In this document: piece after piece, positions 1,356 through 41,059 of the stretch | How the letters are laid out: every line of letters begins with the position of its first letter | Numbering within the stretch: position 1 is the first letter of the stretch | DNA from: an uncultured Nitrospira sp. | GTDB taxonomy: Bacteria; Nitrospirota; Nitrospiria; Nitrospirales; Nitrospiraceae | Assembly: GCA_964552455.1 (NCBI GenBank) | Contig: CAZKHY010000001.1 | Span: forward strand, 1-46,108 | Length of the DNA: 46,108 nt | Reading direction: 5' to 3' | Notes under the pieces: model-generated | The model's input: the letters and a program-made list of their open reading frames with translations, nothing else | Databases searched by the model: none | Told to the model about the DNA's origin: nothing | Position numbers and translations under genes: made by a program

Positions 1356-1699
1356 AGGACGAGACCGTTTTTCTCAGGCACATTCAGGATGCGATTGCCA
1401 AGATTGAGGCGTACACTGAAGGCGGCAAGGCGGTATTTTTCGAAAACTCGATGATCCAGGATTCGGTGATCCGCAACTTGGAAGTCATCGGTGAGGCGGC
1501 GCGAAATTTCTCGCCGGAGTTTCGGAAAAAGCATCCAAAGGTGCCCTGGCGCGGTATAACAGCGATGCGCAACATCCTTATCCATGAGTACTTCGGTGTC
1601 GATCTTCACATTGTGTGGAAGGTCGTTTCCAAGCGAATTCCTACTCTGAAGCGTCACGTTGCGGCGCTGTTGAAAAAACAAAAGGGCTCAGCGAAGTGA
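1352..1699 (+). CDS. hepT: HEPN/DUF86 toxin HepT
   Basis: Contains the RX4HXY HEPN motif (RNILIHEY). It is 115 aa and paired with the upstream MNT gene. Confidence 0.85.
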
Positions 1700-3993
1700 A
1701 ACCAAGAGTGGACATCATCACCAAAGACCTCATCGCGCAGCATAACCTGACCGACGACGAGTACAAGAAGATCGTCGAAATCCTCGGGCGGGAGCCGAAC
1801 CTGACCGAGTTAGGCATGTTCTCGGTCATGTGGTCGGAGCATTGCTCCTACAAGAGCTCGCGGGTGCATCTGAAACGGCTCCCGACGACGGGGCCACGTG
1901 TCGTCCAAGGCCCCGGCGAAAATGCCGGTGCGGTGGACATCGGGGACGGTCTGGCGGCGGTCTTCAAGATGGAGTCCCACAACCATCCCTCTTTCATCGA
2001 GCCCTATCAAGGGGCGGCCACCGGCGTGGGGGGCATCTTGCGGGACATCTTCACGATGGGGGCCAGGCCGATTGCGCTCCTGGACTCGCTCCGGTTCGGG
2101 TTGCTGGATCGGCCCTTGAATCGCCACTTGTTCAAAGGCGTCGTGGCCGGCATCGCCGGCTACGGCAACTGCATGGGCGTGCCGACGGTCGGCGGTGAGG
2201 CGGTTTTCAACGACATCTACTCGCAGAACCCGCTTGTGAACGTCTTTTGCCTGGGGATCGCGAAGAAGGACAAACTGTTCAAAGGGCTGGCGGCCGGGGT
2301 CGGCAACCCGGTCATCTATGTCGGTTCCAAGACGGGCCGGGACGGCATTCACGGGGCCACGATGGCCTCGGACTCCTTCGATGAGGCTTCCGAAGCCAAG
2401 CGGCCGACCGTGCAAGTGGGCGATCCCTTCACTGAGAAACTGTTGCTGGAAGCTTGCTTGGAACTGATGGCCGGCGATCTGCTGGTCGGCATCCAGGACA
2501 TGGGGGCGGCGGGGTTGACCAGCTCGTCCTGCGAGATGGCCTCACGCGCCGGCAACGGCGTCGAGCTGGACCTGACTCATGTGCCGCGGCGTGAGCCCCA
2601 CATGACGCCCTACGAGCTGATGCTCTCGGAGTCGCAAGAGCGGATGCTCATGATCGCCAAGGAGGGGCGTGAGGAAGAGGTCCTGAAGATTTGCCGGAAG
2701 TGGGACTTGTCCGCGGCGGTAGTGGGGCGGGTGACGAGCGACGGGATCTTGCGCGTGAAGGACAACGGCAAGGTTGTGGCCGAGATTCCGGCCAAGGCGC
2801 TGGCGGAGGACGGCCCGCGCTACGAGCGGCCCAGCGCGCCACCCGCCTATCAGGACATGCTCCAGTCCCTCAACATGGACGTGCTGCCGGACGTGAAGGA
2901 TGCCACGGCGGTGCTCCATTCGCTGCTCGAATCGCCCACGATCGCGAGCAAAGCCTGGGTCTATCAACAGTATGACCATATGGTGCGCACCAACACGCTG
3001 GTCCGGCCCGGATCGGATGCGGCCGTGGTCCGGATCAAAGGGACGAACAAGGCCCTGGCGCTGACCACGGACTGTAACGGGCGCTACTGCGTGCTGAATC
3101 CCTACGTCGGCGCGACGATCGCGGTGGCCGAGGCTGCGCGGAATCTGGTTTGCTCCGGGGCCGAGCCGATCGGGCTCACGGACTGTCTGAATTTCGGCAA
3201 TCCCGAGCGGCCCGACATCATGTGGCAGTTTATTCTTTCGATCGAGGGGATCAAAGATGCCTGTGAGGCCTTCAACGTGCCGGTGGTCAGCGGCAACGTG
3301 AGCTTTTACAACGAGACCAACGGGCTCTCGATCTATCCCACGCCGATCCTGGGCATGGTCGGCTTGATCGAGCCGGCTGATCGGGCCATGACCCAATGGT
3401 TCAAGCAGGCGGGCGATGAGATCATTCTGCTGGGCAACACGAAGGAGGATTTGGGAGGGACCGAGTATCTGCGGGTGGTCCATCACAGGGAACAGGGCAG
3501 CCCGCCTGTGCTGAGTCTGGAAACTGAGAAAGCGCTCCACCACTGTGTGCTCGCGTTGATCCGGGAAGGCTTGGTCCAGTCGGCCCATGACTGCTCGGAC
3601 GGAGGCCTGGCTGTGGCCCTGGCCGAATGTTGTGTGGCTCATCCGGTAAGTTCATATTGGGAGGGAGGGGCGCGAAACGCGCCCCTCCCACACCCACCGC
3701 TCGGGGCTGTGGTAAGATTGACTGCGGGCCAACTGCGTCTGGATGCGCTGCTGTTCGGGGAGAGCCAGTCGCGTGTGGTCCTGTCGGTCAGCCCGGCCCA
3801 TCGCGAGACGGTGCTGCGCAAGGCCGGAGCGATGGGGGTTCCGGCGGCGGCGATCGGGACCGTGGGCGGCGAGCGGCTGGTGATCGACGTCGAGGCCGGC
3901 AAGCAGGCTGGTGCCTGCCGGATCGACGCGGATTTGAAGACCTTGCATGAGAGCTGGAGCAAGAGCCTGGAGCGGGCTCTTCAACAACAATGA
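1696..3993 (+). CDS. purL: Phosphoribosylformylglycinamidine synthase subunit PurL
   Basis: Contains [22 protein letters not shown] and other FGAM synthase II motifs. GTG 1696 overlaps the hepT stop (GTGA). The track ORF start at 1615 is a run-on into hepT; GTG 1708 is an alternative start. Confidence 0.9.
3663..3689. repeat. Perfect 12-bp GC hairpin inside purL (GGGAGGGGCGCG-AAA-CGCGCCCCTCCC)
   Basis: Read directly from the sequence. It lies in a ~60-nt segment (3640-3699, [20 protein letters not shown]) that interrupts the conserved ALAE...LGAxVxL region of PurL. Confidence 0.8.
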
Positions 3994-4062
3994 TGAATGC
4001 AGAATGCTGAACGCTGAATTGAAGAGGCTCCGCATTCATCATTCATCACTCATCATTCAGCA
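3991..4062. repeat. Heptamer-array hairpin element (family A: TGNTGAA arm / TTCANCA arm)
   Basis: Reads tgatgaa tgcagaa tgctgaa cgctgaa ttgaaga ggctccg cattcat cattcat cactcat cattcag ca. It spans exactly from the purL TGA to the purF ATG. Confidence 0.85.
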
Positions 4063-5469
4063 ATGCAACTAATTACCCCCGATAAATTCCACGACGAGTG
4101 CGCGGTCTTCGGCATTTACGGCCACAAGGAAGCGGCCAACCTGACCTACCTCGGTCTCTATGCCCTTCAGCACCGGGGGCAGGAGGGGACCGGCATCGTG
4201 TCCTCCGACGGCGAGCATTTCCACGTGGAAAAGGGCATGGGGCTCGTGGCCGATGTCTACTCGAAGACCGTGCTCAAACGCCTGCCCGGTCAGGTGGCCA
4301 TCGGACACAACCGCTACAGCACCGCCGGGGGCAACAACCTCAAGAACGTGCAGCCGCTGACCGTCAACTTCGCCTTCGGGAACCTGGCGCTGGCTCACAA
4401 CGGCAACCTGATCAATGCCCAGATGCTGCGGAACGAGTTGGAGGCCTACGGGGCGATCTTCCAGTCCTCGACCGACAGCGAGGTGATGATTCATCTGATC
4501 GCCCATTCCCGCGGCGATACCCTGTTGGCCCGAATCATTGACGCGTTGAGCCAGGTCCGGGGCGCTTTCTCGGTGGTTCTGTTGACGGACGGGGGCATCA
4601 TCGCCGCCAGAGACCCCCAGGGGTTCCGGCCCCTCTGCCTGGGGCGTCTGCGGGAGAGCTGGCTGGTGGCATCCGAGACCTGCGCCTTCGACCTGATCGG
4701 GGCCGAAGCGGTCCGTGAGATCGAACCGGGCGAACTGGTGATCCTGAATGACGCCGGCGTGACGAGCTACAAGCCCTTTACGAAAACCAAACCGGCCCTG
4801 TGCGTGTTTGAATATGTGTACTTCGCTCGGCCGGACAGCAAGATTTTCGGTGAACGGGCGGTCTACCTCACGCGCAAGGCCCTGGGGCGGCAGTTGGCCC
4901 AGGAGTCGCAGGTAAAGGCGGACATCGTGATCCCGGTGCCGGACTCAGGCGTGCCAGCGGCGCTCGGCTACTCGGAAGGCTCCGGCATCCCGTTCGAGAA
5001 CGGCCTCATCCGGAACCACTACATCGGCCGGACTTTCATCGAGCCGGAACAGTCCATCCGGCACTTCGGGGTGAAGATCAAGCTGAACGCGGTGCCGGAG
5101 GTGCTGGACGGCAAGCGCGTGGTCGTGGTGGACGATTCGATCGTACGGGGGACGACGAGCCGCAAGATCGTCAAAATGCTCCGGCATGCGGGCGCGAAGG
5201 AAGTGCACATGCGGATCAGCTCGCCCCCGATCGTCTCCCCCTGCTTCTACGGAGTCGATACGCCAACCAAGAAGGAGCTGATCGGCTCGAGCCACACGAT
5301 CCAGGAAATCAGGAAATACATCACGGCCGACAGCCTGGCCTACCTCAGCCTGGAAGGGATGCTCAAAGCCGCGCCTGGCAGTCCCGACCACTACTGCAAC
5401 GCCTGTTTCACGGAACAGTACCCCATCCCCTTCACCAAAGCCGAAGAACTGCAGTTGGGCCTTTTCTGA
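4063..5469 (+). CDS. purF: Amidophosphoribosyltransferase
   Basis: Contains the N-terminal catalytic Cys context (HDECAVFGIYG), the PRTase motif VVVVDDSIVRGTT and C-terminal Cys residues. Confidence 0.95.
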   Translation: MQLITPDKFHDECAVFGIYGHKEAANLTYLGLYALQHRGQEGTGIVSSDGEHFHVEKGMGLVADVYSKTVLKRLPGQVAIGHNRYSTAGGNNLKNVQPLTVNFAFGNLALAHNGNLINAQMLRNELEAYGAIFQSSTDSEVMIHLIAHSRGDTLLARIIDALSQVRGAFSVVLLTDGGIIAARDPQGFRPLCLGRLRESWLVASETCAFDLIGAEAVREIEPGELVILNDAGVTSYKPFTKTKPALCVFEYVYFARPDSKIFGERAVYLTRKALGRQLAQESQVKADIVIPVPDSGVPAALGYSEGSGIPFENGLIRNHYIGRTFIEPEQSIRHFGVKIKLNAVPEVLDGKRVVVVDDSIVRGTTSRKIVKMLRHAGAKEVHMRISSPPIVSPCFYGVDTPTKKELIGSSHTIQEIRKYITADSLAYLSLEGMLKAAPGSPDHYCNACFTEQYPIPFTKAEELQLGLF

Positions 5470-5549: not shown

Positions 5550-5644
5550 TGCTGAATTGTGAGTGCTGAGTGATGAATGGAAGCACATGGAGGGACCGGG
5601 CCTCGCTCAATCAGCATTCATCACTCATCGTTCAGCATTTATGA
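5550..5644. repeat. Heptamer-array hairpin element (family A, second copy)
   Basis: Left arm is tgctgaa ttgtgag tgctgag tgatgaa; right arm is atcagca ttcatca ctcatcg ttcagca tttatga. 5615-5637 matches 4040-4062 at 22 of 23 nt. Confidence 0.85.
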
Positions 5645-7119: not shown

Positions 7120-7941
7120 ATGCTTCACACCTCCTCCGAACAGCTCAATCGCCAAGGCAACGAGCACTTCTCGCGCGGCTACTACACCGAAGCCTACGTC
7201 TGTTACGCCAAGGCGCTGGAGTGCGATCGCCTCAGCGGGGACCGGCGGGCGATGGCGGCGACCCTGGGCAACCTGGGCAACATCTGCGCCGTGAGCGGCC
7301 GGCGCGAGCAGGCCCAGGCTTATTACCAGGAAGTGCTGGAGCTGCAGAAAATCATGGGAGACGAGCGGGGCATCGGGACCACGCTCGCCAACCTGGGGAA
7401 CCTGCGCGCCGATGCGGGAGAATGGGAGCGGGCGCGGGCCTATTACCTGGAAGCGCTGGACATCATGCAGGGGACCGGCGACGAGGTGGGGCTGGCGGTG
7501 CTCTACTCCGATCTGGGGCTGGTGGCCCGTGAGACGGGCCAGTGCGACGAGGCCCTGCAGTATTACGAACGGTCGCTGGCCCTGATGCGCCGGCTGGGCA
7601 ACCAGGGCGGGATCGCGGACGCCTGGCGCATGATGGCGCGGACGTACCTGGTCCTCCGCAAGCACGAGGAAGCCCTGGCCTGTTGCCGGACGAGCCAGGC
7701 CGTGGCCGAGCGGGGCGGCGATGAGCTGCGGGCCGGCGGGGCGCGCTACGTGATGGCCCAGTGCTACGAAGAGCTGGGGCGGCTCAAAGAGGCGTCCCAG
7801 TTGCTGGAGCTGGTCGTCCTGATGGACCGGAAGTACCACCTGCCGAAGCTGGAGGAGAACACCAGGCGTCTTGCCCAGTTGCAGGCCCGGCTGGCCGAGT
7901 CCGGACAGGACCGGTCGTCGCAGGGGGAGTTGCGCGCATGA
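7120..7941 (+). CDS. Tetratricopeptide-repeat protein
   Basis: Shows repeated 40-aa units of the type A..LGNLG......G....A..YY...L. Confidence 0.8.
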   Translation: MLHTSSEQLNRQGNEHFSRGYYTEAYVCYAKALECDRLSGDRRAMAATLGNLGNICAVSGRREQAQAYYQEVLELQKIMGDERGIGTTLANLGNLRADAGEWERARAYYLEALDIMQGTGDEVGLAVLYSDLGLVARETGQCDEALQYYERSLALMRRLGNQGGIADAWRMMARTYLVLRKHEEALACCRTSQAVAERGGDELRAGGARYVMAQCYEELGRLKEASQLLELVVLMDRKYHLPKLEENTRRLAQLQARLAESGQDRSSQGELRA

Positions 7942-8387
7942 GCGGGCAGGAGGCCGTCACCCAGGCATGGGACTCAGCCCGCATCCTGCTGCGTCAGCGC
8001 GAGCCGGGACTCTACGAGCTGGAGCCGGGCGGAGCCTTGGCTCTTGACCTGGGCGACGAGGGCTGGCTGCTGGAGATCACCCCCGATGGGCGCCTGATCT
8101 GCCAGAACGGGATGGCCATGGACGACATCAAGAGCCTCCTGTCCGACGGCACGGCGGAGGACCTGGGTACGGATGAGCTGGCGAAGCAAGCCAAATACTA
8201 TCTGCAGCCCGCCGTCGCCAAGGTCAGGAAGGTGTTTCTCGGGGCCGGGTTCGAGGAGGCGACCGAGATGAATGATGCCTATGTGGCGGTGACGTTTCAA
8301 CGGGCGGTTGATCTCGGCAAGCCGGACGAAATCGTCCGGGCGATCCGTTGGTGCCGCCAGCAGGTTGGTGCGAAGCTGACAAGCTGA
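7938..8387 (+). CDS. Hypothetical protein (149 aa)
   Basis: ATG 7938 overlaps the TPR gene stop (ATGA). No family was recognised. Confidence 0.5.
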   Translation: MSGQEAVTQAWDSARILLRQREPGLYELEPGGALALDLGDEGWLLEITPDGRLICQNGMAMDDIKSLLSDGTAEDLGTDELAKQAKYYLQPAVAKVRKVFLGAGFEEATEMNDAYVAVTFQRAVDLGKPDEIVRAIRWCRQQVGAKLTS

Positions 8388-8466
8388 CAAGCATGAAAGC
8401 TGACGAGGGGGATGCCTGTTTCGTGATCTCTGCTATTGGTCAGCTTGGTTCCTTGTCAGCTTGACG
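8372..8466. repeat. Octamer-array inverted repeat (AAGCTGAC arm / GTCAGCTT arm)
   Basis: Left arm is aagctgac aagctgac aagcatga aagctgac; right arm is gtcagctt ggttcctt gtcagctt. The left arm starts inside the last codons of the 7938..8387 CDS. Confidence 0.8.
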
Positions 8467-8485
8467 CATGGGGCGAGGGTAGGCA

Positions 8486-9598
8486 ATGGCTCTTGACGGG
8501 TTTGCCACGGGTGAAGGCACGGGTCGGTATCGCGAGCGCATGGTCGCGGCCGGGCAGGCCCACGAGGGACATTTCCGGGAGGGGCCGGGGAAGCTGGCGC
8601 TCTCCTCGATCGGTCTCGGCACTTATCTGGGCGGGCATGATGAAGGGACGGACGCCCTGTATCTGGCCGCGACCAAGCAGGCGGTCGCGGCCGGCTGCAA
8701 CGTCATCGACAGCGCGATCAACTATCGCTGCCAGCGGAGCGAGCGGGTGATCGGGCGGGCCCTGGCCGAGTTGGTCCGTGACGGGACCTGCCGGCGCGAT
8801 GAAGTCCTGATTTCGACGAAGGGCGGCTTCATCCCCTATGACGGAGCGCCTCCGCGCGACAACGACGCCTATCTGCAACAGACCTTCGTCGTGCCCGGCA
8901 TCATCCGGACGACCGACGTGGTGGCGGGCTGCCACTGCATGACGCCGGCCTACCTTCGGCACCAGGTGAACGCCAGCTTGAGCAACCTGGGGCTGTCCTG
9001 CCTCGATCTGTACTACCTGCACAACCCGGAGATGCAACTGGAAGAGGTGTCGCAGGCTGAATTCATGGCGCGCATGCGCGCGGCCTTCGAAACGCTCGAA
9101 GAAGCCGTGTCGCAGGGCAAGCTGCGCCTGTACGGGACCGCCACCTGGAACGGCTATCGCGCCAGGCCCGGGTCCGGCGGCCATCTTTTACTGGAAGCGC
9201 TGGTGAAGCTGGCGTGGGAAGTGGCGGGCAAGGACCACCATTTCAAGGTCGTCCAGCTGCCCTACAACATCGGCATGCTCGAAGCCTTGGGCCAGCAGAC
9301 GCAGACGATGAACGGCGTGAAGGTCAGCCTGTTGGAGGCGGCCAAAGCCCTGGACATCTACGTCATGTCCAGCGCCTCGATTCTCCAGGGCCAGCTCAGC
9401 CGGAACCTGCCGGCCGAAGTCCGGGAGGTGCTGGGGGACGGGACCGACGCCCAACGCTCGATCCAGTTCGTCCGGTCCACACCCGGGCTGGGGACCGCCC
9501 TGGTCGGCATGAAGCAAGCCGAGCACGTCAAGGACAACCTGGCCGTCTCCAAACGAGCTCCCCTGCAGCCGGACCAGTTCGCACGGTTGTTCAAGTGA
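8486..9598 (+). CDS. Aldo/keto reductase family oxidoreductase
   Basis: Shows the AKR pattern (LGLGTY.G, IDSA..Y, LDLYYLHNP) at 370 aa. Confidence 0.85.
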   Translation: MALDGFATGEGTGRYRERMVAAGQAHEGHFREGPGKLALSSIGLGTYLGGHDEGTDALYLAATKQAVAAGCNVIDSAINYRCQRSERVIGRALAELVRDGTCRRDEVLISTKGGFIPYDGAPPRDNDAYLQQTFVVPGIIRTTDVVAGCHCMTPAYLRHQVNASLSNLGLSCLDLYYLHNPEMQLEEVSQAEFMARMRAAFETLEEAVSQGKLRLYGTATWNGYRARPGSGGHLLLEALVKLAWEVAGKDHHFKVVQLPYNIGMLEALGQQTQTMNGVKVSLLEAAKALDIYVMSSASILQGQLSRNLPAEVREVLGDGTDAQRSIQFVRSTPGLGTALVGMKQAEHVKDNLAVSKRAPLQPDQFARLFK

Positions 9599-13503: not shown

Positions 13504-13514
13504 GGCCACACAAA

Positions 13515-13737
13515 AGAGCTGTCCCGGGCGAAGGGAAGAGGGTGCCAATCCCTCGCGGTCCCGCCGCTGTGATGGGGACGAAACCCGCAGAAGCCACTGT
13601 CTGGTGGCGTGGTTCGTGAAGCGCAAGGGCTCCTCTTGTAGACGTTTCACGAACGACGCTTCACGCTTCACGTGAAAGATGGGAAGGCGCGGGGAGTAGA
13701 CGACGAGCCCCTAAGCCAGAAGACCTGCCCGGACAAT
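13515..13737 (+). promoter_or_regulatory. Cobalamin (B12) riboswitch 1
   Basis: Core elements are GGGAAGAGGGTGCCAATCC, CGGTCCCGCCGCTGT, GAAGCCACTG, GGGAAGGCGCGG and the B12 box AAGCCAGAAGACCTGCCC. It lies upstream of a corrinoid ABC importer. Confidence 0.85.
13603..13679. repeat. Heptamer-array hairpin (family B: TGAAGCG / CTTCACG) inside the riboswitch 1 variable extension
   Basis: Reads ggtggcg tggttcg tgaagcg ... tttcacg aacgacg cttcacg cttcacg. The same sequence blocks occur at 17092-17172. Confidence 0.8.
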
Positions 13738-13790
13738 GACCGTCTTTCCCTCGTGGGCTGGGGAAAGGGTGAGGGTGAAGAAGCGGGTGC

Positions 13791-14835: not shown

Positions 14836-15992
14836 TGCCCATCACGGTCGGAGAAACCGGCGCCCGTCGCGGCGCCGGCGAAAACGCGGTTCCTGTTGCG
14901 GGCCGGCCGCAGTCCGTCAGGGGGCAACCCTTGGCCGGGATCAAACAGGCGCGGCTCTCGCCCACGCGATGGATGGGCACCCTGTCGGTCCTTGGCGCAG
15001 CCAGTCTCCTGGTGTCGGTCGTCTGTCTGCGGTTCGGAGCGGAGGAGGTCGGATTCATCCAAGCGGTTCAGATCCTGTTCGAGGCCCTCAGGCATGGCCA
15101 ATCCGGGATCGAGTCGGCCGGACCGGCCGGCATCATCCTGATGCAGGTGCGGCTGCCCCGCGTCCTGCTGGCCTTCATGGTGGGCGCGTGCCTGGCGTCG
15201 GTCGGCGTCGGGCTCCAGGCCCTGCTCAGGAACCCCCTGGCCGATCCCTACGTCCTCGGCGTCTCCAGCGGGGCCGCCTTGGGGGCCGGCGTGGCGATTC
15301 TCTTGGGGATCGGGAGCACGATCCTGGCCGTCTCGGCGCTGCCGCTCTGCGCAATGGTCGGCGGGCTCCTGTCGGTGCTCGTCTTGTACCGCATCGCCGC
15401 CTCCTACGGGTACCTGCCCGTGCACACCCTCCTGCTGGCCGGGGTGATCCTCAACGCCGTCTTCGCGGCGCTGGTCATGTTCATCACGTCGATTCTGGAG
15501 CCCAACCGGTCTTTCGGGATGATGGCCTGGCTGATGGGCACCCTGGCGGCGCCGGACTACCCGGCCTTGCTGGTCCTGGCCTGCTACCTGCTCGTGGGCA
15601 CCGTGATCCTGTTCCACCAGGCTCCGTCGCTGAACCTGCTGACGCTGGGGGAAGAAGCCGCGCGGTCCCTCGGCGTCGAGGTGGAGGCCGTCAAGAAGAC
15701 CGTGTTCTTCACCTCCGCCCTGCTGACCGGAGCGGTCGTCTCGGCCAGCGGCATGATCGGGTTCATCGGCATGGTCATCCCGCACGCGATCCGGATGACC
15801 ACCGGCGCCGATCATCGGCTGCTGTTTCCGGCCTCGGCACTGGTGGGCGGCATGTTTCTGATGGCGGCCGATACGGTGGCGCGCACGCTCCTGGCGCCGG
15901 GGGAAATCCCCGTCGGGGTGGTGACGGCGCTGGCCGGAGGGCCCGTTTTCGTCTATCTGCTGATGGCCCGAAGGGGCGGACTGGCTGCATGA
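14835..15992 (+). CDS. btuC: FecCD-family corrinoid ABC permease (BtuC-like)
   Basis: Has multiple TM helices and the motif GMIGFIGMVIPHAIR. The ATG overlaps the btuF stop (TGATG). Confidence 0.85.
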   Translation: MPITVGETGARRGAGENAVPVAGRPQSVRGQPLAGIKQARLSPTRWMGTLSVLGAASLLVSVVCLRFGAEEVGFIQAVQILFEALRHGQSGIESAGPAGIILMQVRLPRVLLAFMVGACLASVGVGLQALLRNPLADPYVLGVSSGAALGAGVAILLGIGSTILAVSALPLCAMVGGLLSVLVLYRIAASYGYLPVHTLLLAGVILNAVFAALVMFITSILEPNRSFGMMAWLMGTLAAPDYPALLVLACYLLVGTVILFHQAPSLNLLTLGEEAARSLGVEVEAVKKTVFFTSALLTGAVVSASGMIGFIGMVIPHAIRMTTGADHRLLFPASALVGGMFLMAADTVARTLLAPGEIPVGVVTALAGGPVFVYLLMARRGGLAA

Positions 15993-16870
15993 GCAACGGA
16001 CGTTCCGGGATCGCATCCGCCGAGCGGCCTGCCTATCGGGTAGAGCGGCTCCGCTTCAGTTATCGAAAAGAGCGGGGCGTCCCTGCGAGGCAGAAGAGCG
16101 AAAAAGACGGATGGGTGCTCAAGGGGGTGACCTTCGAGGTCAGGGCCGGCGAGATTGTCGGGGTGATCGGGCCCAACGGGTCCGGCAAAACGTCATTGCT
16201 CAAGCTGTTGGCCCGCATCCTGCACCCGCACGAAGGGACGGTCGCCCTCTTCGGACGCGCGATGGCCGACCTGCCACAGGCGGAAGTGGCCAGGACGGTC
16301 GCGCTGGTGCCGCAAGAAAGCCCCCAGGTCTTTCCCTTCACGATCACGGAAATGGTTCTGATGGGCCGATTCCCCCACCACCAGATCGCGGGAGGCCTGG
16401 GCGGGTTCGGATGGGAGGGGCCGGAGGACATCCGCCTGGCGGAAGAAGCGATGCGGGACACGGACGTCATGCACTTGGCGGATCGGTTGATCAGCGACGT
16501 GTCCGGCGGCGAGCGCCAGCGGGCGATCATCGCCCGGGCGCTGACCCAGCAGCCGCGCGTCCTGTTGCTGGATGAGCCGACAGCCTTCCTGGATCTCCAT
16601 CATCAACTGGACATCTGCCGCATCCTGCGCCGCCTGAACGAGGAGCGGGGCTTGACGGTCGTGCTCGTGTCCCATGATCTGAACCTGGCCAGCCAGTACT
16701 GCGACCGGCTGCTGTTGTTGAGCGAAGGGCTGGTCCATCGGATGGGGCCGCCGGCCGACGTCATTCGACCCGAGGTGCTGGAAGCCGTGTATCGATGCCA
16801 GGTGCTGGTGGATCACCATCCAACGTCCGGGCTGCCACGGATCACGTTGCCGGGGCGTGTCATGACGTGA
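15989..16870 (+). CDS. btuD: ABC transporter ATP-binding protein (BtuD/FepC-like)
   Basis: Contains Walker A (GPNGSGKTS), the signature VSGGERQR and Walker B (LLLDEP). The ATG overlaps the btuC stop (ATGA). Confidence 0.9.
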   Translation: MSNGRSGIASAERPAYRVERLRFSYRKERGVPARQKSEKDGWVLKGVTFEVRAGEIVGVIGPNGSGKTSLLKLLARILHPHEGTVALFGRAMADLPQAEVARTVALVPQESPQVFPFTITEMVLMGRFPHHQIAGGLGGFGWEGPEDIRLAEEAMRDTDVMHLADRLISDVSGGERQRAIIARALTQQPRVLLLDEPTAFLDLHHQLDICRILRRLNEERGLTVVLVSHDLNLASQYCDRLLLLSEGLVHRMGPPADVIRPEVLEAVYRCQVLVDHHPTSGLPRITLPGRVMT

Positions 16871-16912
16871 AAGGTGAAACGTGAACGGTAAAACGTAAAG
16901 CGAGAAAGCGGG
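16864..16912. repeat. One-armed heptamer array (NNNGTRA x6) beginning at the btuD stop codon
   Basis: Reads gacgtga aaggtga aacgtga acggtaa aacgtaa agcgaga aagcggg. Confidence 0.75.
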
Positions 16913-16955: not shown

Positions 16956-16984
16956 TTGCAAAGACAGGTGCGGTAACCATTAAT
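16956..16984 (+). promoter_or_regulatory. Possible sigma-70-like promoter for riboswitch 2/btuB
   Basis: TTGCAA, a 17-nt spacer, then ATTAAT. The -35 lies within a small hairpin (CTGTCTTgcaAAGACAG). Confidence 0.3.
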
Positions 16985-16999
16985 CGGGAGGGACTGTTA

Positions 17000-17232
17000 G
17001 AGAAAGGGACGACGGAACGGGGAAGATGGTGCAACTCCATCACGGTGCCGCCACTGTAAGCGGGGAGTGATCCTGCAGGAAGCCACTGGCCGGTGGCGTG
17101 GTTCGTGAAGCGTATCTCGTGAAGCGCAAGAGTTTTTGCCGGCGTTTCACGAACGACGCTTCACGCTTCACGCGAAAGCTGGGAAGGCGCGGGAGAGCGA
17201 CGATCCGCAAGTCAGGAAACCCGGCTGTCGAT
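17000..17232 (+). promoter_or_regulatory. Cobalamin (B12) riboswitch 2
   Basis: Core elements are GGGGAAGATGGTGCAACTCC, CGGTGCCGCCACTGT, GAAGCCACTGG, GGGAAGGCGCGG and the B12 box AAGTCAGGAAACCCGGC. A possible RBS-sequestering hairpin (CCCTTCgagcGAAAGGG) sits before the btuB ATG. Confidence 0.85.
17092..17172. repeat. Heptamer-array hairpin (family B) inside the riboswitch 2 variable extension
   Basis: Reads ggtggcg tggttcg tgaagcg tatctcg tgaagcg ... tttcacg aacgacg cttcacg cttcacg. It has one extra 14-nt unit compared with riboswitch 1. Confidence 0.8.
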
Positions 17233-17271
17233 CCAATTCACTGAACCCTTCGAGCGAAAGGGAAGGTGGGC

Positions 17272-19231: not shown

Positions 19232-20683
19232 ATGGCCCCGCCGCGGCTCGTGATCGCCGGCACGTCCAGCGGGGTCGGCAAGACCACGGTCACCCTGGCG
19301 CTTCTGGCCGCCTTGAAGGCACGGGGGCGAAGGGTCCAGTCGTTCAAGGCGGGGCCGGATTACATCGATCCCGGACACCATGCGATGGCGACCGGCCGGC
19401 CGTCCCGTAACCTGGACGGCTGGATGCTGGGGCCGGCCAGGAACCGGGAGATTTTCTTTCGCGCCGCGGCCGATGCGGACCTTTCGATCGTCGAGGGGAT
19501 GATGGGACTCTTCGACGGGAGTGCTCCGACCAGCGAAGTCGGCAGCACGGCCGAACTGGCCAAACAGCTCAAGGCCCCCGTGCTGCTCGTCATCGACGGG
19601 AGCGCCATGGCCCGCTCGGCTGCGGCCATGGCCTCGGGCTACGCCCGGTTCGATCCGGCGCTCAACGTCGCCGGGGTCCTGTTCAACCGGGTCGGCAGCG
19701 AGGGCCACTATCGGTTGCTCAAGGAAGCGGTGGAGGCCGATACTGACCTGGCCGTGGTCGGGTATCTCCGTCCCGATGCGGAACTGACAATCGGGGATCG
19801 CCACCTTGGCCTGGTGACGGCGATCGAACAAGGGGCGAGCGATCTCTATCGGAAACTGGGACAGGCGGCAGCCGAGACGGTTGATCTGGACCGGATCGAA
19901 GCGCTGGCCCGGTCGGCGGCAGAGGACGTGAACGGTGAAAAGTTGGACGTGAAAGGCGGGCAAATGCAGGCGGGAACTAGTTTCGGTTCCCCTGCCGTTC
20001 ATGTCTCACCGCTTACGTCTCACGAGCGGGTTCGGGTCGGCATCGCCTACGATGCCGCGTTTTGTTTTTACTATCCCGACAATCTTGAACTGTTGGAAGC
20101 GGCAGGGGGCGAACTGGTCAGGTTTTCTCCCGTGAGGGACGGGGTGTTGCCCGAGGTGGATTTGCTCTATCTGGGCGGGGGGTACCCGGAGCTATACGGC
20201 GAAGCGCTGGACCGGAATCAATCCATGAGGAGGTCGATCCGGACCTTTGCAGACAGAGGGGGCACGATCTATGCCGAATGCGGCGGCATGATGTACTTGA
20301 CGCAAGCCATACGGGACTTCGAAGGCCGCACCCATCAGATGGTCGGACTGTTTCCGGCCGAGGCCGTCATGCGCAAGCCGGGCCTGACGCTGGGGTACAG
20401 GGAAATCGAGATCACAAAACCATGCCCCCTGGGAACGTCCGGGATCAAGGCCCGCGGCCACGAGTTCCATTATTCGTCGCTGACGCCCACCGGGCCGCTC
20501 GAATACGTCTGTTCGGTCACGGACGCCAAAGGGACGATGCGGTCGCCGGATGGCCTGGTGAAAGGCAACTGCGTCGCCCTCTATGCCCACCTTCATTTCG
20601 GAAGCCAGCCCGACCTTGCGCGCGCGCTGGTGGCCGCCGCCCGCGCCGGCCGTGAACGGGCGGCAGCCGGCGGCACGACATGA
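19232..20683 (+). CDS. cbiA: Cobyrinate a,c-diamide synthase
   Basis: Contains the P-loop AGTSSGVGKTT, KAGPDYIDP and the GATase part (YAECGGMMYL, HEFHYS). ATG 19208 is an alternative start. Confidence 0.9.
   Translation: MAPPRLVIAGTSSGVGKTTVTLALLAALKARGRRVQSFKAGPDYIDPGHHAMATGRPSRNLDGWMLGPARNREIFFRAAADADLSIVEGMMGLFDGSAPTSEVGSTAELAKQLKAPVLLVIDGSAMARSAAAMASGYARFDPALNVAGVLFNRVGSEGHYRLLKEAVEADTDLAVVGYLRPDAELTIGDRHLGLVTAIEQGASDLYRKLGQAAAETVDLDRIEALARSAAEDVNGEKLDVKGGQMQAGTSFGSPAVHVSPLTSHERVRVGIAYDAAFCFYYPDNLELLEAAGGELVRFSPVRDGVLPEVDLLYLGGGYPELYGEALDRNQSMRRSIRTFADRGGTIYAECGGMMYLTQAIRDFEGRTHQMVGLFPAEAVMRKPGLTLGYREIEITKPCPLGTSGIKARGHEFHYSSLTPTGPLEYVCSVTDAKGTMRSPDGLVKGNCVALYAHLHFGSQPDLARALVAAARAGRERAAAGGTT
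19925..20022. repeat. 14-heptamer imperfect palindrome embedded in frame in the cbiA interdomain linker
   Basis: Reads gacgtga acggtga aaagttg gacgtga aaggcgg gcaaatg caggcgg gaactag tttcggt tcccctg ccgttca tgtctca ccgctta cgtctca. It encodes DVNGEKLDVKGGQMQAGTSFGSPAVHVSPLTSH. Confidence 0.8.
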
Positions 20684-22908: not shown

Positions 22909-24438
22909 ATGATCCAGGGGACCGCTTCGCACGTGGGGAAATCCGTGCTCGTGGCGGCCTTCTGTCGGCTGTTCGCACGACGCGGCATCAAGGTGGCTCC
23001 GTTCAAGGCGCAGAACATGTCGAATAACTCCTTCGTCACGCCCGACGGGAAGGAGATCGGGCGGGCCCAGGCGGTCCAGGCGGCGGCCTGCCGGCTGGCG
23101 CCCCGGACCGACTTCAACCCCGTGCTGATCAAGCCGGAAGGGCCTTGCGGCGCGCAGCTGGTGCTGAACGGGGCGGTGGCGGGCAAGTTGATGACCAGCG
23201 ATTTCGGCCGGGTCCGGCGCGACGGGTTTCAGTCGGTGCGGGAAGCCTTCGGACGTCTGAGGGAAGAATTTGGCCTGGTCATCCTGGAAGGGGCCGGCAG
23301 CCCGGCCGAGATCAATTTGAGGGAGCAGGACATCGTCAACATGAGGATGGCCCGGGAAGCCGAGGCGCCGGTGCTGCTGGTGGGGGACATTGATCGTGGC
23401 GGGGTCTTTGCGGCGTTGGTCGGGACCATGGCCCTGCTGACCGTCGAGGAGCGGAAATACGTCAAGGGTTTCCTGATCAACAAGTTTCGCGGGGATGAAG
23501 CGTTGCTCGCGCCCGGCATCGGGATGGTGGAGGCACAGATGGGCCTCCGGTGTCTGGGCGTGATCCCTCATTGGGGTGACCTTCAGGTGCCGCAGGAAGA
23601 TTCTCTCAGTTGGGACGACCAGTCTGCGGAATCTCTGCCGCCTCACGTTTCACACCGGGAACCCGTTGCTTCTTCTCGTGCAACGGGTGCCACTCACGGG
23701 GTCTTGGCGATCGGTGTGGCCGATGTGCCGACCATCTCGAATTTCACCGACTTCGATGCCCTGGCCCGCGAACCGGATGTCGAGCTGATCCGGGTGACGG
23801 GTACGACCAGCCGCGAGCTGGATGCGCTGATCCTGCCTGGCAGTAAGAACACCCCTGAGGCTTTGCGGTTCATCAAGGCTCGCGGGATCGACTCGGTGGC
23901 CAGACGGGTCTTGGCCGATGGGGGCATTGTGGCCGGGCTCTGCGGCGGATTCCAGGTGCTGGGGCGGACGATCCTGGACCCTGAAGGGATCGAGTCTGAC
24001 GAGGCGGAGCTGGACGGGTTGGGGTTGCTTGATACGGTGACGACGTTTGAGCCGGAGAAGGTGACGGTCGCGGTGACCGGCATCCATCGGGAGACCGGCT
24101 GTCCGGTTCAGGGTTATGAAGTCCACATGGGGCGAACCAGGCTTGGAAAAAGTGCGCATCCCTTGTTGAAGATCCGGCGGGCCGGTGATACAGGGGGGCA
24201 CGAAGAAGGGGCGGTCTCGGCGGACGGGAAGGTGTTCGGCACCTACCTGCATGGACTCTTCGATGCGCCGGAGTTCCGACGCCTGTTCCTCGATCGCCTG
24301 AGGGAAGCACGGGGCTGGTCCCCGCTTGCCTCAAGGAGCCATGTCACGCTGGACCAGCAATTGGATCGGCTGGCTGATTTTATCCAAAAACATGTCAATT
24401 TGCCGGCCATTGAGGCGATCATCGAACAGGGGGTGTGA
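22909..24438 (+). CDS. cobQ: Cobyric acid synthase
   Basis: Contains MIQGTASHVGKS, EGAGSPAEINL and the GATase part (GLCGGFQVLG, YLHGLF). Alternative starts are 22855 and 22891. Confidence 0.9.
   Translation: MIQGTASHVGKSVLVAAFCRLFARRGIKVAPFKAQNMSNNSFVTPDGKEIGRAQAVQAAACRLAPRTDFNPVLIKPEGPCGAQLVLNGAVAGKLMTSDFGRVRRDGFQSVREAFGRLREEFGLVILEGAGSPAEINLREQDIVNMRMAREAEAPVLLVGDIDRGGVFAALVGTMALLTVEERKYVKGFLINKFRGDEALLAPGIGMVEAQMGLRCLGVIPHWGDLQVPQEDSLSWDDQSAESLPPHVSHREPVASSRATGATHGVLAIGVADVPTISNFTDFDALAREPDVELIRVTGTTSRELDALILPGSKNTPEALRFIKARGIDSVARRVLADGGIVAGLCGGFQVLGRTILDPEGIESDEAELDGLGLLDTVTTFEPEKVTVAVTGIHRETGCPVQGYEVHMGRTRLGKSAHPLLKIRRAGDTGGHEEGAVSADGKVFGTYLHGLFDAPEFRRLFLDRLREARGWSPLASRSHVTLDQQLDRLADFIQKHVNLPAIEAIIEQGV
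23641..23703. repeat. Period-7 segment with a 9-bp perfect stem (ACCCGTTGC/GCAACGGGT) in frame in the cobQ interdomain linker
   Basis: Reads cctcacg tttcaca ccgggaa cccgttg cttcttc tcgtgca acgggtg ccactca. It encodes PHVSHREPVASSRATGATH. Confidence 0.6.
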
Positions 24439-25076: not shown

Positions 25077-26132
25077 ATGAACCTGCAACACACGATAGGG
25101 GCCATCGAACCCGCGGACCGCACCTGTCTGAAACGCGCCCAAGCCCGCTTGGACCGGCTGACCAAGCCCGTCGGAAGCCTGGGACGGCTGGAAGAATTGG
25201 CGGCCCGGTATGTGGCGATGACCAGGGAGGAGCGACCGAAGGTGCCCCGCGCCGCGATCTTCACCTTCGCAGCCGATCACGGCGTGACGAGCGAAGGGGT
25301 CAGCGCCTATCCCAGCGCCGTGACGCCTCAGATGGTCCTGAATTTTCTGCGGGGCGGGGCGGCCGTCAACGTCCTGGCTTCCCACGTGGGCGCCGAGGTC
25401 CGCGTGGTGGATATCGGGGTGGCCCACGAGTTCGGCCCCTTGCCCAATCTGATCGCCAGAAAAGTGGCGCATGGAACGAACAATTTCTCCCAAAGGCCGG
25501 CCCTGAGTCGCGCCGACGCCGTCAAGGCGCTCGAGGTGGGGATCGAGCTGGCTTCTGAAGCGGTGCAGGGCGGCATTGGCCTGATCGGGACCGGGGACAT
25601 GGGCATCGGCAATACGACGCCGAGCGCCGCCATCACGGCGGTGATGACGGGGCAGCCGGTGGCGGCCGTGACTGGTCGCGGCACGGGGATCGACGAGGAA
25701 GGCTACCTCCGGAAGGTGGCGGTGATCGAAAGGGCGCTGGCGGCGCATCGTCCTGACCCCGGCGATCCCATCGACGTGCTGGCGAAGGTCGGCGGGCTGG
25801 AGATTGCCGGTCTGGCCGGGGTGATCCTGGGGGCTGCCGCCCGTCGGGTCCCCGTCGTCTTGGACGGCTTCATCGCCGGCGCGGCCGCGCTGGTCGCCGC
25901 CGGGCTTCAACCCCGTTGCTGTGACTACCTGATTGCATCCCATCGGTCGGTCGAACGGGGCCATCAGGCGGCCTTGGATCGGCTGGGGCTCAAGCCGTTG
26001 CTCGACTTGGACCTGCGGCTCGGCGAGGGAACCGGGGCTTGCCTGGGGATCAGCTTGGTCCAGGCCGGCATCAAGATCCTGACCCAGATGGCGACTTTCG
26101 ATGAAGCCGGGGTCTCCGAGCGTGACACGTGA
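25077..26132 (+). CDS. cobT: Nicotinate-nucleotide--dimethylbenzimidazole phosphoribosyltransferase
   Basis: Contains LTKP.GSLGRLE, GDMGIGNTT and LRLGEGTGA. Confidence 0.9.
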   Translation: MNLQHTIGAIEPADRTCLKRAQARLDRLTKPVGSLGRLEELAARYVAMTREERPKVPRAAIFTFAADHGVTSEGVSAYPSAVTPQMVLNFLRGGAAVNVLASHVGAEVRVVDIGVAHEFGPLPNLIARKVAHGTNNFSQRPALSRADAVKALEVGIELASEAVQGGIGLIGTGDMGIGNTTPSAAITAVMTGQPVAAVTGRGTGIDEEGYLRKVAVIERALAAHRPDPGDPIDVLAKVGGLEIAGLAGVILGAAARRVPVVLDGFIAGAAALVAAGLQPRCCDYLIASHRSVERGHQAALDRLGLKPLLDLDLRLGEGTGACLGISLVQAGIKILTQMATFDEAGVSERDT

Positions 26133-26219
26133 GAGGTGAAAAGGAAGTCGTGAAAGGTGAAGCGACCGGTACTGAAACGGAACTTGTGCGTCCTCTAGCT
26201 TGCGGTTCACGTTCCTTCC
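26129..26219. repeat. Heptamer-array hairpin (GTGAARN arm / TTCACGT TCCTTCC arm) at the cobT-cobS junction
   Basis: Left arm is gtgagag gtgaaaa ggaagtc gtgaaag gtgaagc; right arm is ttcacgt tccttcc. Confidence 0.75.
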
Positions 26220-29719: not shown

Positions 29720-29770
29720 AAGCCTGTTCCCTCAGCCAACTGCCCTTGCCCGCTGGCTCTCAGAGCCCCA

Positions 29771-29854
29771 CGCTGAACGCGGAATAATGAATGCCGGACG
29801 GTCTGGTTCGGCACTCTGTCGGTCGTCGTTCCGCGTTCCTCATTCATGCTTGCT
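29771..29854. repeat. Heptamer-array element related to family A
   Basis: Left arm is cgctgaa cgcggaa taatgaa tgccgga; right arm is cgttccg cgttcct cattcat gcttgct. Confidence 0.7.
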
Positions 29855-40522: not shown

Positions 40523-41059
40523 ATGCCGAAAATCATCACTGCCAAGCGGCTTGAAGGCGAGACCGAGCAGGCCAGGGAATATGTGAAGACCCACATCTTG
40601 TTTCCGTCCGGCGTGCTGGGGCTGATCCTGCTGATTGCGGGGACCGGGTCGCTCGTGTACCAGTTCATGTTCGAGGCCTACGGATGGAAAACGTTCCTTG
40701 AAAGCACCGTGCTGCTGCTGGCGGGCGCGCTGATCGGATGGGCCCAGACCCGCTACCACAAGTATGTGCTGCGGGAGCATCCGGGCTATTTTGCCGGCCG
40801 GTTGAGGACCTTCACGAGGACCGGGCCGAAACGATCCAAGCGGGAGGCCCCGGCCTCCGAGCTTCGACATTGGGGACGCAACTGGGTTCCGCTCTACTAT
40901 CTGCTGGGGGCGGGCGCGCTGCTCGGCGCGTCCTTGGCCAGCTCGATTCTCGGCCAGGTCTATTACATGGCGGCCTTCCTGATGCCCTGGGCCGGGTTTT
41001 TCTGGGCAAAGATGTTCTTTTGGCGGGGATTGCTGACGCAGGGCAGAAGTGAACAGTGA
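40523..41059 (+). CDS. Integral membrane hypothetical protein
   Basis: It is 178 aa with four predicted hydrophobic helices. No family was recognised. Confidence 0.5.
   Translation: MPKIITAKRLEGETEQAREYVKTHILFPSGVLGLILLIAGTGSLVYQFMFEAYGWKTFLESTVLLLAGALIGWAQTRYHKYVLREHPGYFAGRLRTFTRTGPKRSKREAPASELRHWGRNWVPLYYLLGAGALLGASLASSILGQVYYMAAFLMPWAGFFWAKMFFWRGLLTQGRSEQ

Follow-up and report, generated by a model that had tools for sequence, protein, structure and literature searches.

A heptamer palindrome read in frame within cbiA

How can a repeat that is rich in stop codons come to lie in frame within the gene of a metabolic enzyme? This question is raised by a segment at positions 19925-20023 of a contig from an uncultured Nitrospira sp. 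(CAZKHY010000001.1, assembly GCA_964552455.1); the whole stretch of 46,108 nucleotides (nt) that was analysed is referred to below as the window. The segment lies on the forward strand within cobB/cbiA (19232-20683), which was identified by NCBIfam and Pfam matches and codes for a cobyrinate a,c-diamide synthase of 483 amino acids (aa). The answer that we favour, with a probability of roughly 70 per cent, is that a copy from a class of palindromes with heptamer units is tolerated here, purged of its in-frame stop codons and accommodated in the tether that joins the two domains of CbiA.

The segment comprises 33 codons (residues 232-264, peptide DVNGEKLDVKGGQMQAGTSFGSPAVHVSPLTSH, directly N-terminal of the GATase_3 domain) and forms an imperfect palindrome. 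A first-pass annotation, made from the letters alone, had described it as 14 heptamers inserted in frame at 19925-20022. The letters at these positions agree with those quoted, but as a literal inserted unit the span is impossible, because 98 nt are not divisible by three; the coding segment is 99 nt long. The left arm (19925-19952) can be parsed into the four units GACGTGA ACGGTGA AAAGTTG GACGTGA, of which the first, second and fourth are family-like and the third (AAAGTTG) is degenerate. The right arm (19995-20022) consists of CCGTTCA TGTCTCA CCGCTTA CGTCTCA, on the minus strand GTGAGAC GTAAGCG GTGAGAC ATGAACG, and all four of its units are family-like. The six units between the arms (19953-19994) form a separate GC-rich stem-loop without heptamer identity, and the count of 14 is thus a nominal one. 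The central stem that had been proposed does exist: in the RNA fold GGCGG..GGGAACU and GGUUCCC..CUGCC pair around a loop. No second copy of this stem-loop was present elsewhere in the window; its TTCCCC core is common to L161 and L166, two of the orthologous loci described below.

One inverted repeat within the segment is GACGTGAACGGTGA/TCACCGCTTACGTC (14 nt, 86%), and GACGTGAACGG/CCGTTCATGTC form another. The fold predicted for the RNA of positions 19915-20032 has an energy of -49.8 kcal/mol, better than that of any of 200 dinucleotide shuffles (z = -3.6). The left arm holds a 21-nt direct repeat (GGACGTGAACGG/GGACGTGAAAGG), which is reflected in a 7-aa periodicity of the peptide (DVNGEKL/DVKGGQM). 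The segment does not have the features of an intrinsic (Rho-independent) terminator, its hairpin being followed by GAGCGGGTTCGG; it was not flagged by the terminator scan, and the promoter scan flagged nothing within it. Just 3' of the segment, at 20038-20067, a terminator-like hairpin with a T-run (CGGCATCGCCTACGATGCCG CGTTTTGTTT) lies inside the conserved coding motif VGIAYDAAFCFYY. This site is probably coincidental, as the scan yields no more sites of this type than it does in shuffled sequences.

Over its whole length the protein that carries the segment scored 517.9 bits against the CobB equivalog NF002204/PRK01077 (cutoff 254), and 471 bits against TIGR00379 (cutoff 261), both from NCBIfam. 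In Pfam, CbiA covers residues 6-185 and GATase_3 residues 268-459. The P-loop (G10-T19), the ECGG motif (E349-C350-G351-G352) and the HEFH motif (H410-H413) are invariant columns of the orthologue alignment (A1), and the product has the complete two-domain architecture of a P-loop ATPase followed by a C-terminal GATase_3 domain with the catalytic motifs. The segment had been assigned to the interdomain linker just before the glutaminase domain and its reading frame had been reported to stay open; with GATase_3 beginning at residue 268 and the palindrome translated in frame within the 483-aa open reading frame (ORF), both statements proved correct.

A structure prediction had been suggested as a further check. 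In an AlphaFold2 model of the cbiA product, built from 58 aligned sequences (mean predicted local distance difference test score, pLDDT, 86.1; predicted template modelling score, pTM, 0.85), the stretch 234-261 is modelled as coil at pLDDT values under 50; it is preceded by a helix (219-232) and followed by the strand with which the glutaminase domain opens (267-272). The segment is thus predicted to occupy a disordered tether that links the ATPase domain to the glutaminase domain, that is, a site where additional residues would be structurally permitted. Sequence and profile searches returned no solved structure of a CbiA/CobB relative.

Codons at the repeat cores

Units 1, 2 and 4 of the left arm keep their GTGA out of frame. 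In unit 3 an intact GTGA would set TGA in frame, and here the codon table shows TTG (19943-19945, forward strand). The corresponding codon was TTA in seven orthologous cbiA linkers carrying arrays of this GTGA kind (B-type; 7 of 8 cases), TCA in L087 and GTA in L003. TTA is not used at all among the 50 Leu codons of the window cbiA and accounts for 0-3 of about 50 in the other genes; in several orthologues the sole TTA is that of unit 3. A similar situation was found for the Gly codon of unit 2, which was GGT in 8 of the 11 B-type linkers examined (AGT in L167), with GGT making up only 2 of the 55 Gly codons of the window cbiA. Because these rare codons (GGT for Gly, TTA/TTG for Leu) sit at repeat-core positions, the peptide is best regarded as a by-product of a DNA repeat, with an origin at the nucleotide level. 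TTA and TTG, the TCA of L087 and the GGA found in copies of a second, A-type repeat (see below) are one-step escapes from an in-frame TGA.

Related arrays elsewhere in the window

Membership of the segment in a repeat family, which had been claimed at first reading, goes beyond chance. The 18-nt left-arm sequence GACGTGAACGGTGAAAAG had four other matches with at most three mismatches in the window (16864, 16878, 26126 and 41046) against 0.04 expected. Three successive GTRA-N3 units occurred five times (0.00 expected), one of these being the minus strand of the cbiA right arm (20006-20023), and TGA-N4-TGA-N4-TGA occurred 10 times (0.23 expected). Tandem 7-nt units were also evident from four period-7 arrays, compared with 0.1 in shuffles.

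The arrays are of two kinds, all listed here on the forward strand. B-type arrays that are near-matches to the cbiA left arm lie between genes at 16865-16907 (ACGTGAA AGGTGAA ACGTGAA CGGTAAA ACGTAAA, with period 7) and at the cobT/cobS junction (26120-26165); neither has a partner arm. A-type palindromes, built of AATGNTG / CATTCAT units, lie at 3989-4057, 5553-5641 and 29762-29850. The last two are intergenic, and the first fills the gap between two genes, spanning it entirely from the stop codon to the next ATG at 4063. The elements are unlike one another in their variable bases (GTGACAG, GTGATGA, GCTGAAA etc.); the copies have the unit rule in common and not the sequence.

With a TGA at the end of every unit, a forward array closes all three reading frames. 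In four genes the stop codon itself is a TGA of a heptamer array, either the first or the second. ORF 14969-16870 stops at the first TGA (16868-16870) of array 16865-16907, ORF 25077-26132 at the TGA 26130-26132 of array 26120-26165, and ORF 1615-3993 at the TGA 3991-3993 of palindrome 3989-4057; in the ORF ending at 41059 the stop codon (41057-41059) is likewise an array TGA.

In both cobalamin riboswitches of the window (16978-17242 and 13509-13746), the helix that follows the B12 box accommodates a hairpin with heptamer arms in its apical loop. These hairpins are B-type and lie on the forward strand at 17096-17173 (32-nt arms, 78% complementary) and at 13606-13672. In the Rfam alignment the riboswitch with the former hairpin has 85 nt at the place of a 6-nt loop in the model. 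The riboswitch hairpins are the RNA counterpart of the protein-linker case.

The linker in orthologous genes

The comparison set consisted of 166 loci with DNA, taken from among the matches listed, and of the 120 closest protein cluster representatives. The variable linker was measured from after ALARS to before VGIAYD. In most Nitrospirales it is 20-24 aa long with a fold z of about 0, and in outgroups from other phyla it is of similar length and lacks the motif. The linker of the window gene, 40 aa, is the longest among the loci compared, and the length varies from 23 to 40 aa among close orthologues. The net gain is thus 16-20 aa, and not the gap of about 30 aa that had been predicted for the orthologues.

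Among the 120 closest representatives about 37 have a B-type peptide (VRGEALGVRG...HASRLTPH), 5 an A-type peptide (AECGMMNDELL...SSFSVQRSAF) and about 14 a peptide from a palindrome of a third type (GGGAGGG/CCCTCCC); 64 have none of these. The roughly 37 proteins with a homologous B-type peptide at the same site (67-85% identity) speak against the segment being a recent or private insertion, and the peptide is absent from the outgroups, so that no homologue was seen in unrelated taxa. Heptamer-armed hairpins were found at the same place in seven close relatives (L161-L167, 72-84% identity), with z between -1.6 and -4.8. The architecture recurs in independent assemblies (Joint Genome Institute, JGI; metagenome-assembled genomes, MAGs, of NCBI; Logan). 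From its distribution the segment appears to be old and common to a Nitrospira sub-clade.

A neighbour-joining tree built without the linker placed the window in a sub-clade of mostly B-type members, within which an A-type group (L001, L081, L082) and a GGGAGGG-type locus (L002) are nested. B-type elements also occur within a different clade (L005, L008, L087), the members of which have a conserved short linker, CRELPAAAPQPVMRNHGRTVR. In L005, L008, L087 and L090 the flanks are closest to those of their own clade right up to the linker, and at 120-nt resolution no imported recombination tract was detected around it. Because the types nest in the tree and the flanks keep their clade affinity up to the linker, the site appears to be a hotspot that was occupied several times independently, its occupants across Nitrospira being of three palindrome types or more.

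The GGGAGGG-type palindrome has the arms GGGGAGGG/CCCTCCCC and was seen in L017 (Nitrospira moscoviensis NSP M-1), L002, L090, L004 and L012; its peptides include PPLCKGRLGGVE..SPSPSLQRRG and LPSPPHLRGRGWVGG. In L090 the linker palindrome folds with z = -6.3.

Proposed course of events and evidence against it

Taking these observations together, we propose the following. The repeat class consists of arrays of NNN-GTGA units followed by inverted arrays of TCAC-NNN units, usually placed between genes in this Nitrospira genome. There, the TGA in each unit provides stops in all frames and often the stop codon of the upstream gene. The cbiA copy stays translatable through point mutation of one unit in three, the one with the would-be in-frame TGA, to TTA or TTG. 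In its mRNA a hairpin with about 37 base pairs could arise that the ribosome would read through, and the product has about 16-20 additional residues in a loop predicted to be unstructured, with the catalytic motifs intact. The data above show which repeat this is, its frame and location, its rare codons and its spread among orthologues; role and history are proposed from them. The segment itself would be a tolerated passenger without a function of its own. It would have originated in the ancestor of a Nitrospira sub-clade and would later have been remodelled, units being gained or lost 21 nt at a time and the arrays of the same genome homogenising the copy, the linker being a permissive site colonised several times independently.

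All arrays of the window, the cbiA copy included, conform to GTGAA[ACG]G, whereas the cbiA copy of L161 reads GTGAGGG/GTTAGGC. Because the window copy has the A-rich flavour of its own genome and that of L161 differs, the sequences suggest that arrays are exchanged within one genome. The 21-nt internal direct repeat fits growth in three-unit steps, which preserve the frame.

Several observations weigh against the proposal. The cbiA copy is only weakly periodic: 7-8 of the 14 units are recognisable, and its arm remains below the period-7 threshold that the intergenic arrays reach. Simple insertion predicts that DNA is added, but in L005 and L008 (B-type) and in L090 (GGGAGGG type) the elements replace the old linker DNA. 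A pair of near-identical alleles with an empty and a filled site was not found among the loci compared, and the insertion event was accordingly not seen directly. When every left arm was compared with every right arm for cross-duplex energy, only those of the window and L167 paired best with their own partner, G-rich arms pairing with any C-rich arm; this outcome is ambiguous as to co-evolution of the arms, and covariation is not claimed.

A further difficulty is the persistence of the hairpins. At four-fold degenerate sites the window diverges from L161 by 0.30, and the remaining members of the sub-clade from one another by 0.45-0.6; the hairpins and GTGA cores persist in the sub-clade despite this divergence. 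In 13 of the 14 linker elements the RNA fold of the sense strand is stabler than that of the antisense strand, although the elements are not independent samples; the G-U pairs number 4 in sense vs 1 in antisense for the window and 6 vs 1 for L081. A neutral, vertically inherited passenger should have decayed, and some maintaining force is therefore implied, be it selection on RNA structure, template switching from arm to arm or conversion from other arrays.

Alternative explanations

Next to the favoured explanation, the one that survives best is growth in place. A GTGA-like seed would have been expanded by replication slippage, with steps of 21 nt surviving in frame, and the palindrome would have been formed by fold-back or template switching, all without transposition. 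The 21-nt direct repeat of the left arm, the variation of linker length among close orthologues and the near-perfect inverted arrays of the same kind in unrelated contigs are in line with such a process, as is the attribution of heptanucleotide arrays to slippage (Mrazek 2007, in the summaries given by PMC4679880 and PMC4692102). On the other hand, growth in place does not explain why the copy matches the other arrays of its genome in flavour, or why the same unit order, with GTTA in third position, is seen in independent lineages, and the linkers in the base state have no obvious seed. We consider it a serious possibility, with clearly less than an even chance.

A second alternative is that a classical non-autonomous transposon, resembling a MITE (miniature inverted-repeat transposable element) or a Rickettsia palindromic element (RPE), entered the linker as a preformed unit. 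This would account for arms that are inverted repeats, for related copies dispersed in the genome with a genome-specific flavour, and for the independent occupation of the same linker in different clades without imported flanks. However, no target-site duplication adjoins the arms: the sole flanking direct repeat of at least 4 nt, GGTCGG, is located 9 and 12 nt away, within conserved codons. The copies share a unit rule and not a sequence, both the variable bases and the number of units being different, and the arrays at 16865-16907 and 26120-26165 lack a partner arm. In addition, the linker was replaced, not added to, the 98-nt span first quoted is no multiple of three, and a Pfam scan of 10 neighbouring genes revealed no transposase; a REP-associated tyrosine transposase (RAYT) was likewise absent among the neighbours scanned. 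Entry of a preformed transposon seems unlikely, although transposition, growth in place with fold-back and templated repair all come into consideration as routes.

It could also be argued that the hairpin is a functional mRNA element under selection, either an interdomain pause site aiding co-translational folding or a signal for processing or stability, and that the peptide is its by-product. No B-type or A-type orthologue of the sub-clade is without its hairpin, despite near saturation of the four-fold sites, the sense folds are the stabler ones in the great majority of elements and have more G-U pairs, and the rare codons were kept. Against this, most Nitrospirales and all outgroups manage without a hairpin, three unrelated palindrome types interchange at the site, neither the loop nor the stem sequence is conserved, and the strand comparison draws on 14 elements that are related to one another. 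Moreover, in L005, L008 and L087 the hairpins have decayed to z values of 0 or above. A selected RNA function is in our judgement unlikely as the main explanation.

Finally, an ordinary lineage-specific linker under protein selection with incidental heptamers, to which the recurrence of VRGEALGVRG...RLTPH in about a third of the close orthologues might point, or an assembly artefact is hardly credible, considering that rare GGT and TTA codons fall exactly on repeat-core positions, that the segment DNA matches intergenic arrays and folds with z -3.6, that the model is disordered and of low confidence at the segment, and that independent assemblies have the same architecture.

The stop-purged, tolerated repeat copy therefore stays our preferred reading, and a bolder extension of it can be offered only tentatively, its chances being perhaps one in several. 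Palindromes of heptamers with an invariant (G)TGA core may be an undescribed and actively maintained class of structured repeats that serve as gene punctuation, combining all-frame stops with an RNA hairpin, and that in Nitrospira repeatedly colonise CbiA/CobQ tethers and the apical loops of cobalamin riboswitches. The sense hairpin would be selected, and the in-gene copy could act as a slippage-prone switch, because a shift by +/-7 nt runs straight into TGA.

Relation to known repeats

The established precedent for palindromes that are read in frame is the RPE, which had also been cited at first reading. RPEs lie between genes and in frame in unrelated metabolic genes, where they are translated at places compatible with the fold (PMC10969869). 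The likeness is real: both are palindromic, have intergenic and in-frame copies, and add a peptide where the fold permits, and the cbiA segment is present in its ORF at a predicted permissive site. RPEs are families of about 150 bp, found only in Rickettsia, in which both the sequence and the peptide that it encodes are conserved. In contrast, the cbiA element is from Nitrospira and measures about 100 nt; its units of 7 nt are fixed in the GTGA core and free in the variable bases, and a stop had to be removed from it. Membership in the RPEs is implausible in view of the taxon and the heptamer substructure, as far as can be judged from the description of the RPEs. The precedent is thus a fair analogy for the outcome; as to identity, the segment is probably not an RPE, and it is not a demonstrable MITE, having no target-site duplication and no fixed family sequence.

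By anatomy the element resembles the heptanucleotide simple-repeat arrays, of all long simple repeats the ones met most often in bacteria (Mrazek 2007, summarised in PMC4679880 and PMC4692102). The TAACTGA repeats of Beggiatoaceae and cyanobacteria have a stop in every frame, overlap the stop codon of the gene upstream and are confined, within ORFs, to places where no stop arises (PMC4679880), and the last of these rules is also obeyed by the cbiA copy, where the in-frame unit reads TTG/TTA and no in-frame stop is found. Some of the GGGAATC heptamer arrays of Xanthomonas are inverted and able to form stem-loops (PMC4692102). Shared features with these systems (TAACTGA, cyanobacterial heptamers, GGGAATC) are thus the 7-nt tandem units, the mostly intergenic location, the all-frame stops, the overlap with upstream stop codons and the inverted arrangements. 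The Nitrospira elements differ in that a pair of inverted arrays forming one long hairpin is the standard and in that only a core of 3-4 nt is constant; the cbiA copy differs further in having a forward, stop-bearing arm at the junction of essential enzyme domains, with the in-frame TGA mutated away. The best reading is that the segment belongs with the heptanucleotide arrays by its anatomy and that it works like an RPE, probably without being one.

MITEs, repetitive extragenic palindromic sequences (REP), bacterial interspersed mosaic elements (BIME) and REPINs are also short, dispersed, hairpin-forming and mostly extragenic, with occasional in-frame fusions (PMC10969869). Internal tandem periodicity of 7 nt is not a feature of these families, and the cbiA element departs from them in lacking a target-site duplication, a conserved family sequence and a transposase or RAYT among the neighbours scanned. 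The arrays of the window, too, have the unit rule in common and no family consensus related to an autonomous insertion sequence. In the literature we found no specific description of heptamer or palindromic repeats in Nitrospira.

The heptamer-palindrome architecture itself appears to extend much wider than Nitrospira. In 551 kb of Nitrospirales loci 42 period-7 T[GA]A clusters were counted, 12 of them palindromic, vs 19 clusters after shuffling; for 450 kb from other taxa the numbers were 14 clusters, 2 palindromic, vs 17 after shuffling. GTGA-N3 arrays of the same architecture, inverted pairs included, were found in IMG/VR contigs with a GC content from 0.44 to 0.71. Near-perfect inverted GTGA-N3 pairs are present in viral-classified contigs at L233 8446-8522, L234 10374-10483, L202 1807-1923 and L172 1057-1240. 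When the protein database was searched with a synthetic repeat peptide, the only matches were 14 short hypothetical proteins (P0121-P0134), mostly from Halomonas/Vreelandella, which matched HASRLTPHASRLTP at 64-100% identity; the result is uninformative for Nitrospira, and these proteins are probably translated heptamer arrays in unrelated bacteria.

If the proposed origin is correct, a stop-carrying repeat can be absorbed by an enzyme provided that it lies in a disordered tether and that one base per three units is changed. This would add to the ways known for repeats to make proteins longer, for which Rickettsia has so far given the best documentation. The linker palindromes, together with the copies in B12 riboswitch loops, would chart by natural example which sites are structurally permissive. 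In annotation work, peptides with rare codons such as VRGEALGVRG...RLTPH may serve to recognise repeat-derived stretches in the proteomes of Nitrospira. That hairpins and GTGA cores have persisted while synonymous divergence came close to saturation points to a maintaining process that is open to testing.

Neighbouring genes and further repeats

The host gene is part of a cobalamin cluster with the order riboswitch, BtuF-like protein, ABC transporter, riboswitch, TonB receptor, cbiA, cobO, nitroreductase-like gene, cobQ, cobU, cobT, cobS. The closest homologues of the cbiA product bear the names Nitrospira or Nitrospirota. The cbiA frame is open from 19082, and 19208 is another possible start.

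At the other end of the cluster, a cobS start at GTG 26129 would place the first residues of the protein (VRGEKEVVKGEATG; 26129-26180) in the B-type array, and the Pfam match begins only at residue 33. The true start of cobS is probably further downstream.

The linker of the window cobQ (23608-23724) contains only two TCAC units, and its fold is not significant (z -0.5). In L162, a related Nitrospirota MAG, the cobQ gene (7707-9242) codes for a paralogous amidotransferase with four in-frame TCACNNN units at 8449-8480 (peptide LMRHPSRVTRH) in its own interdomain linker.

An intergenic palindrome of the same architecture and another period was observed at 8373-8463 of the window, where 8-nt units (AAGCTGAC x4 / GTCAGCTT) overlap the end of ORF 7761-8387.

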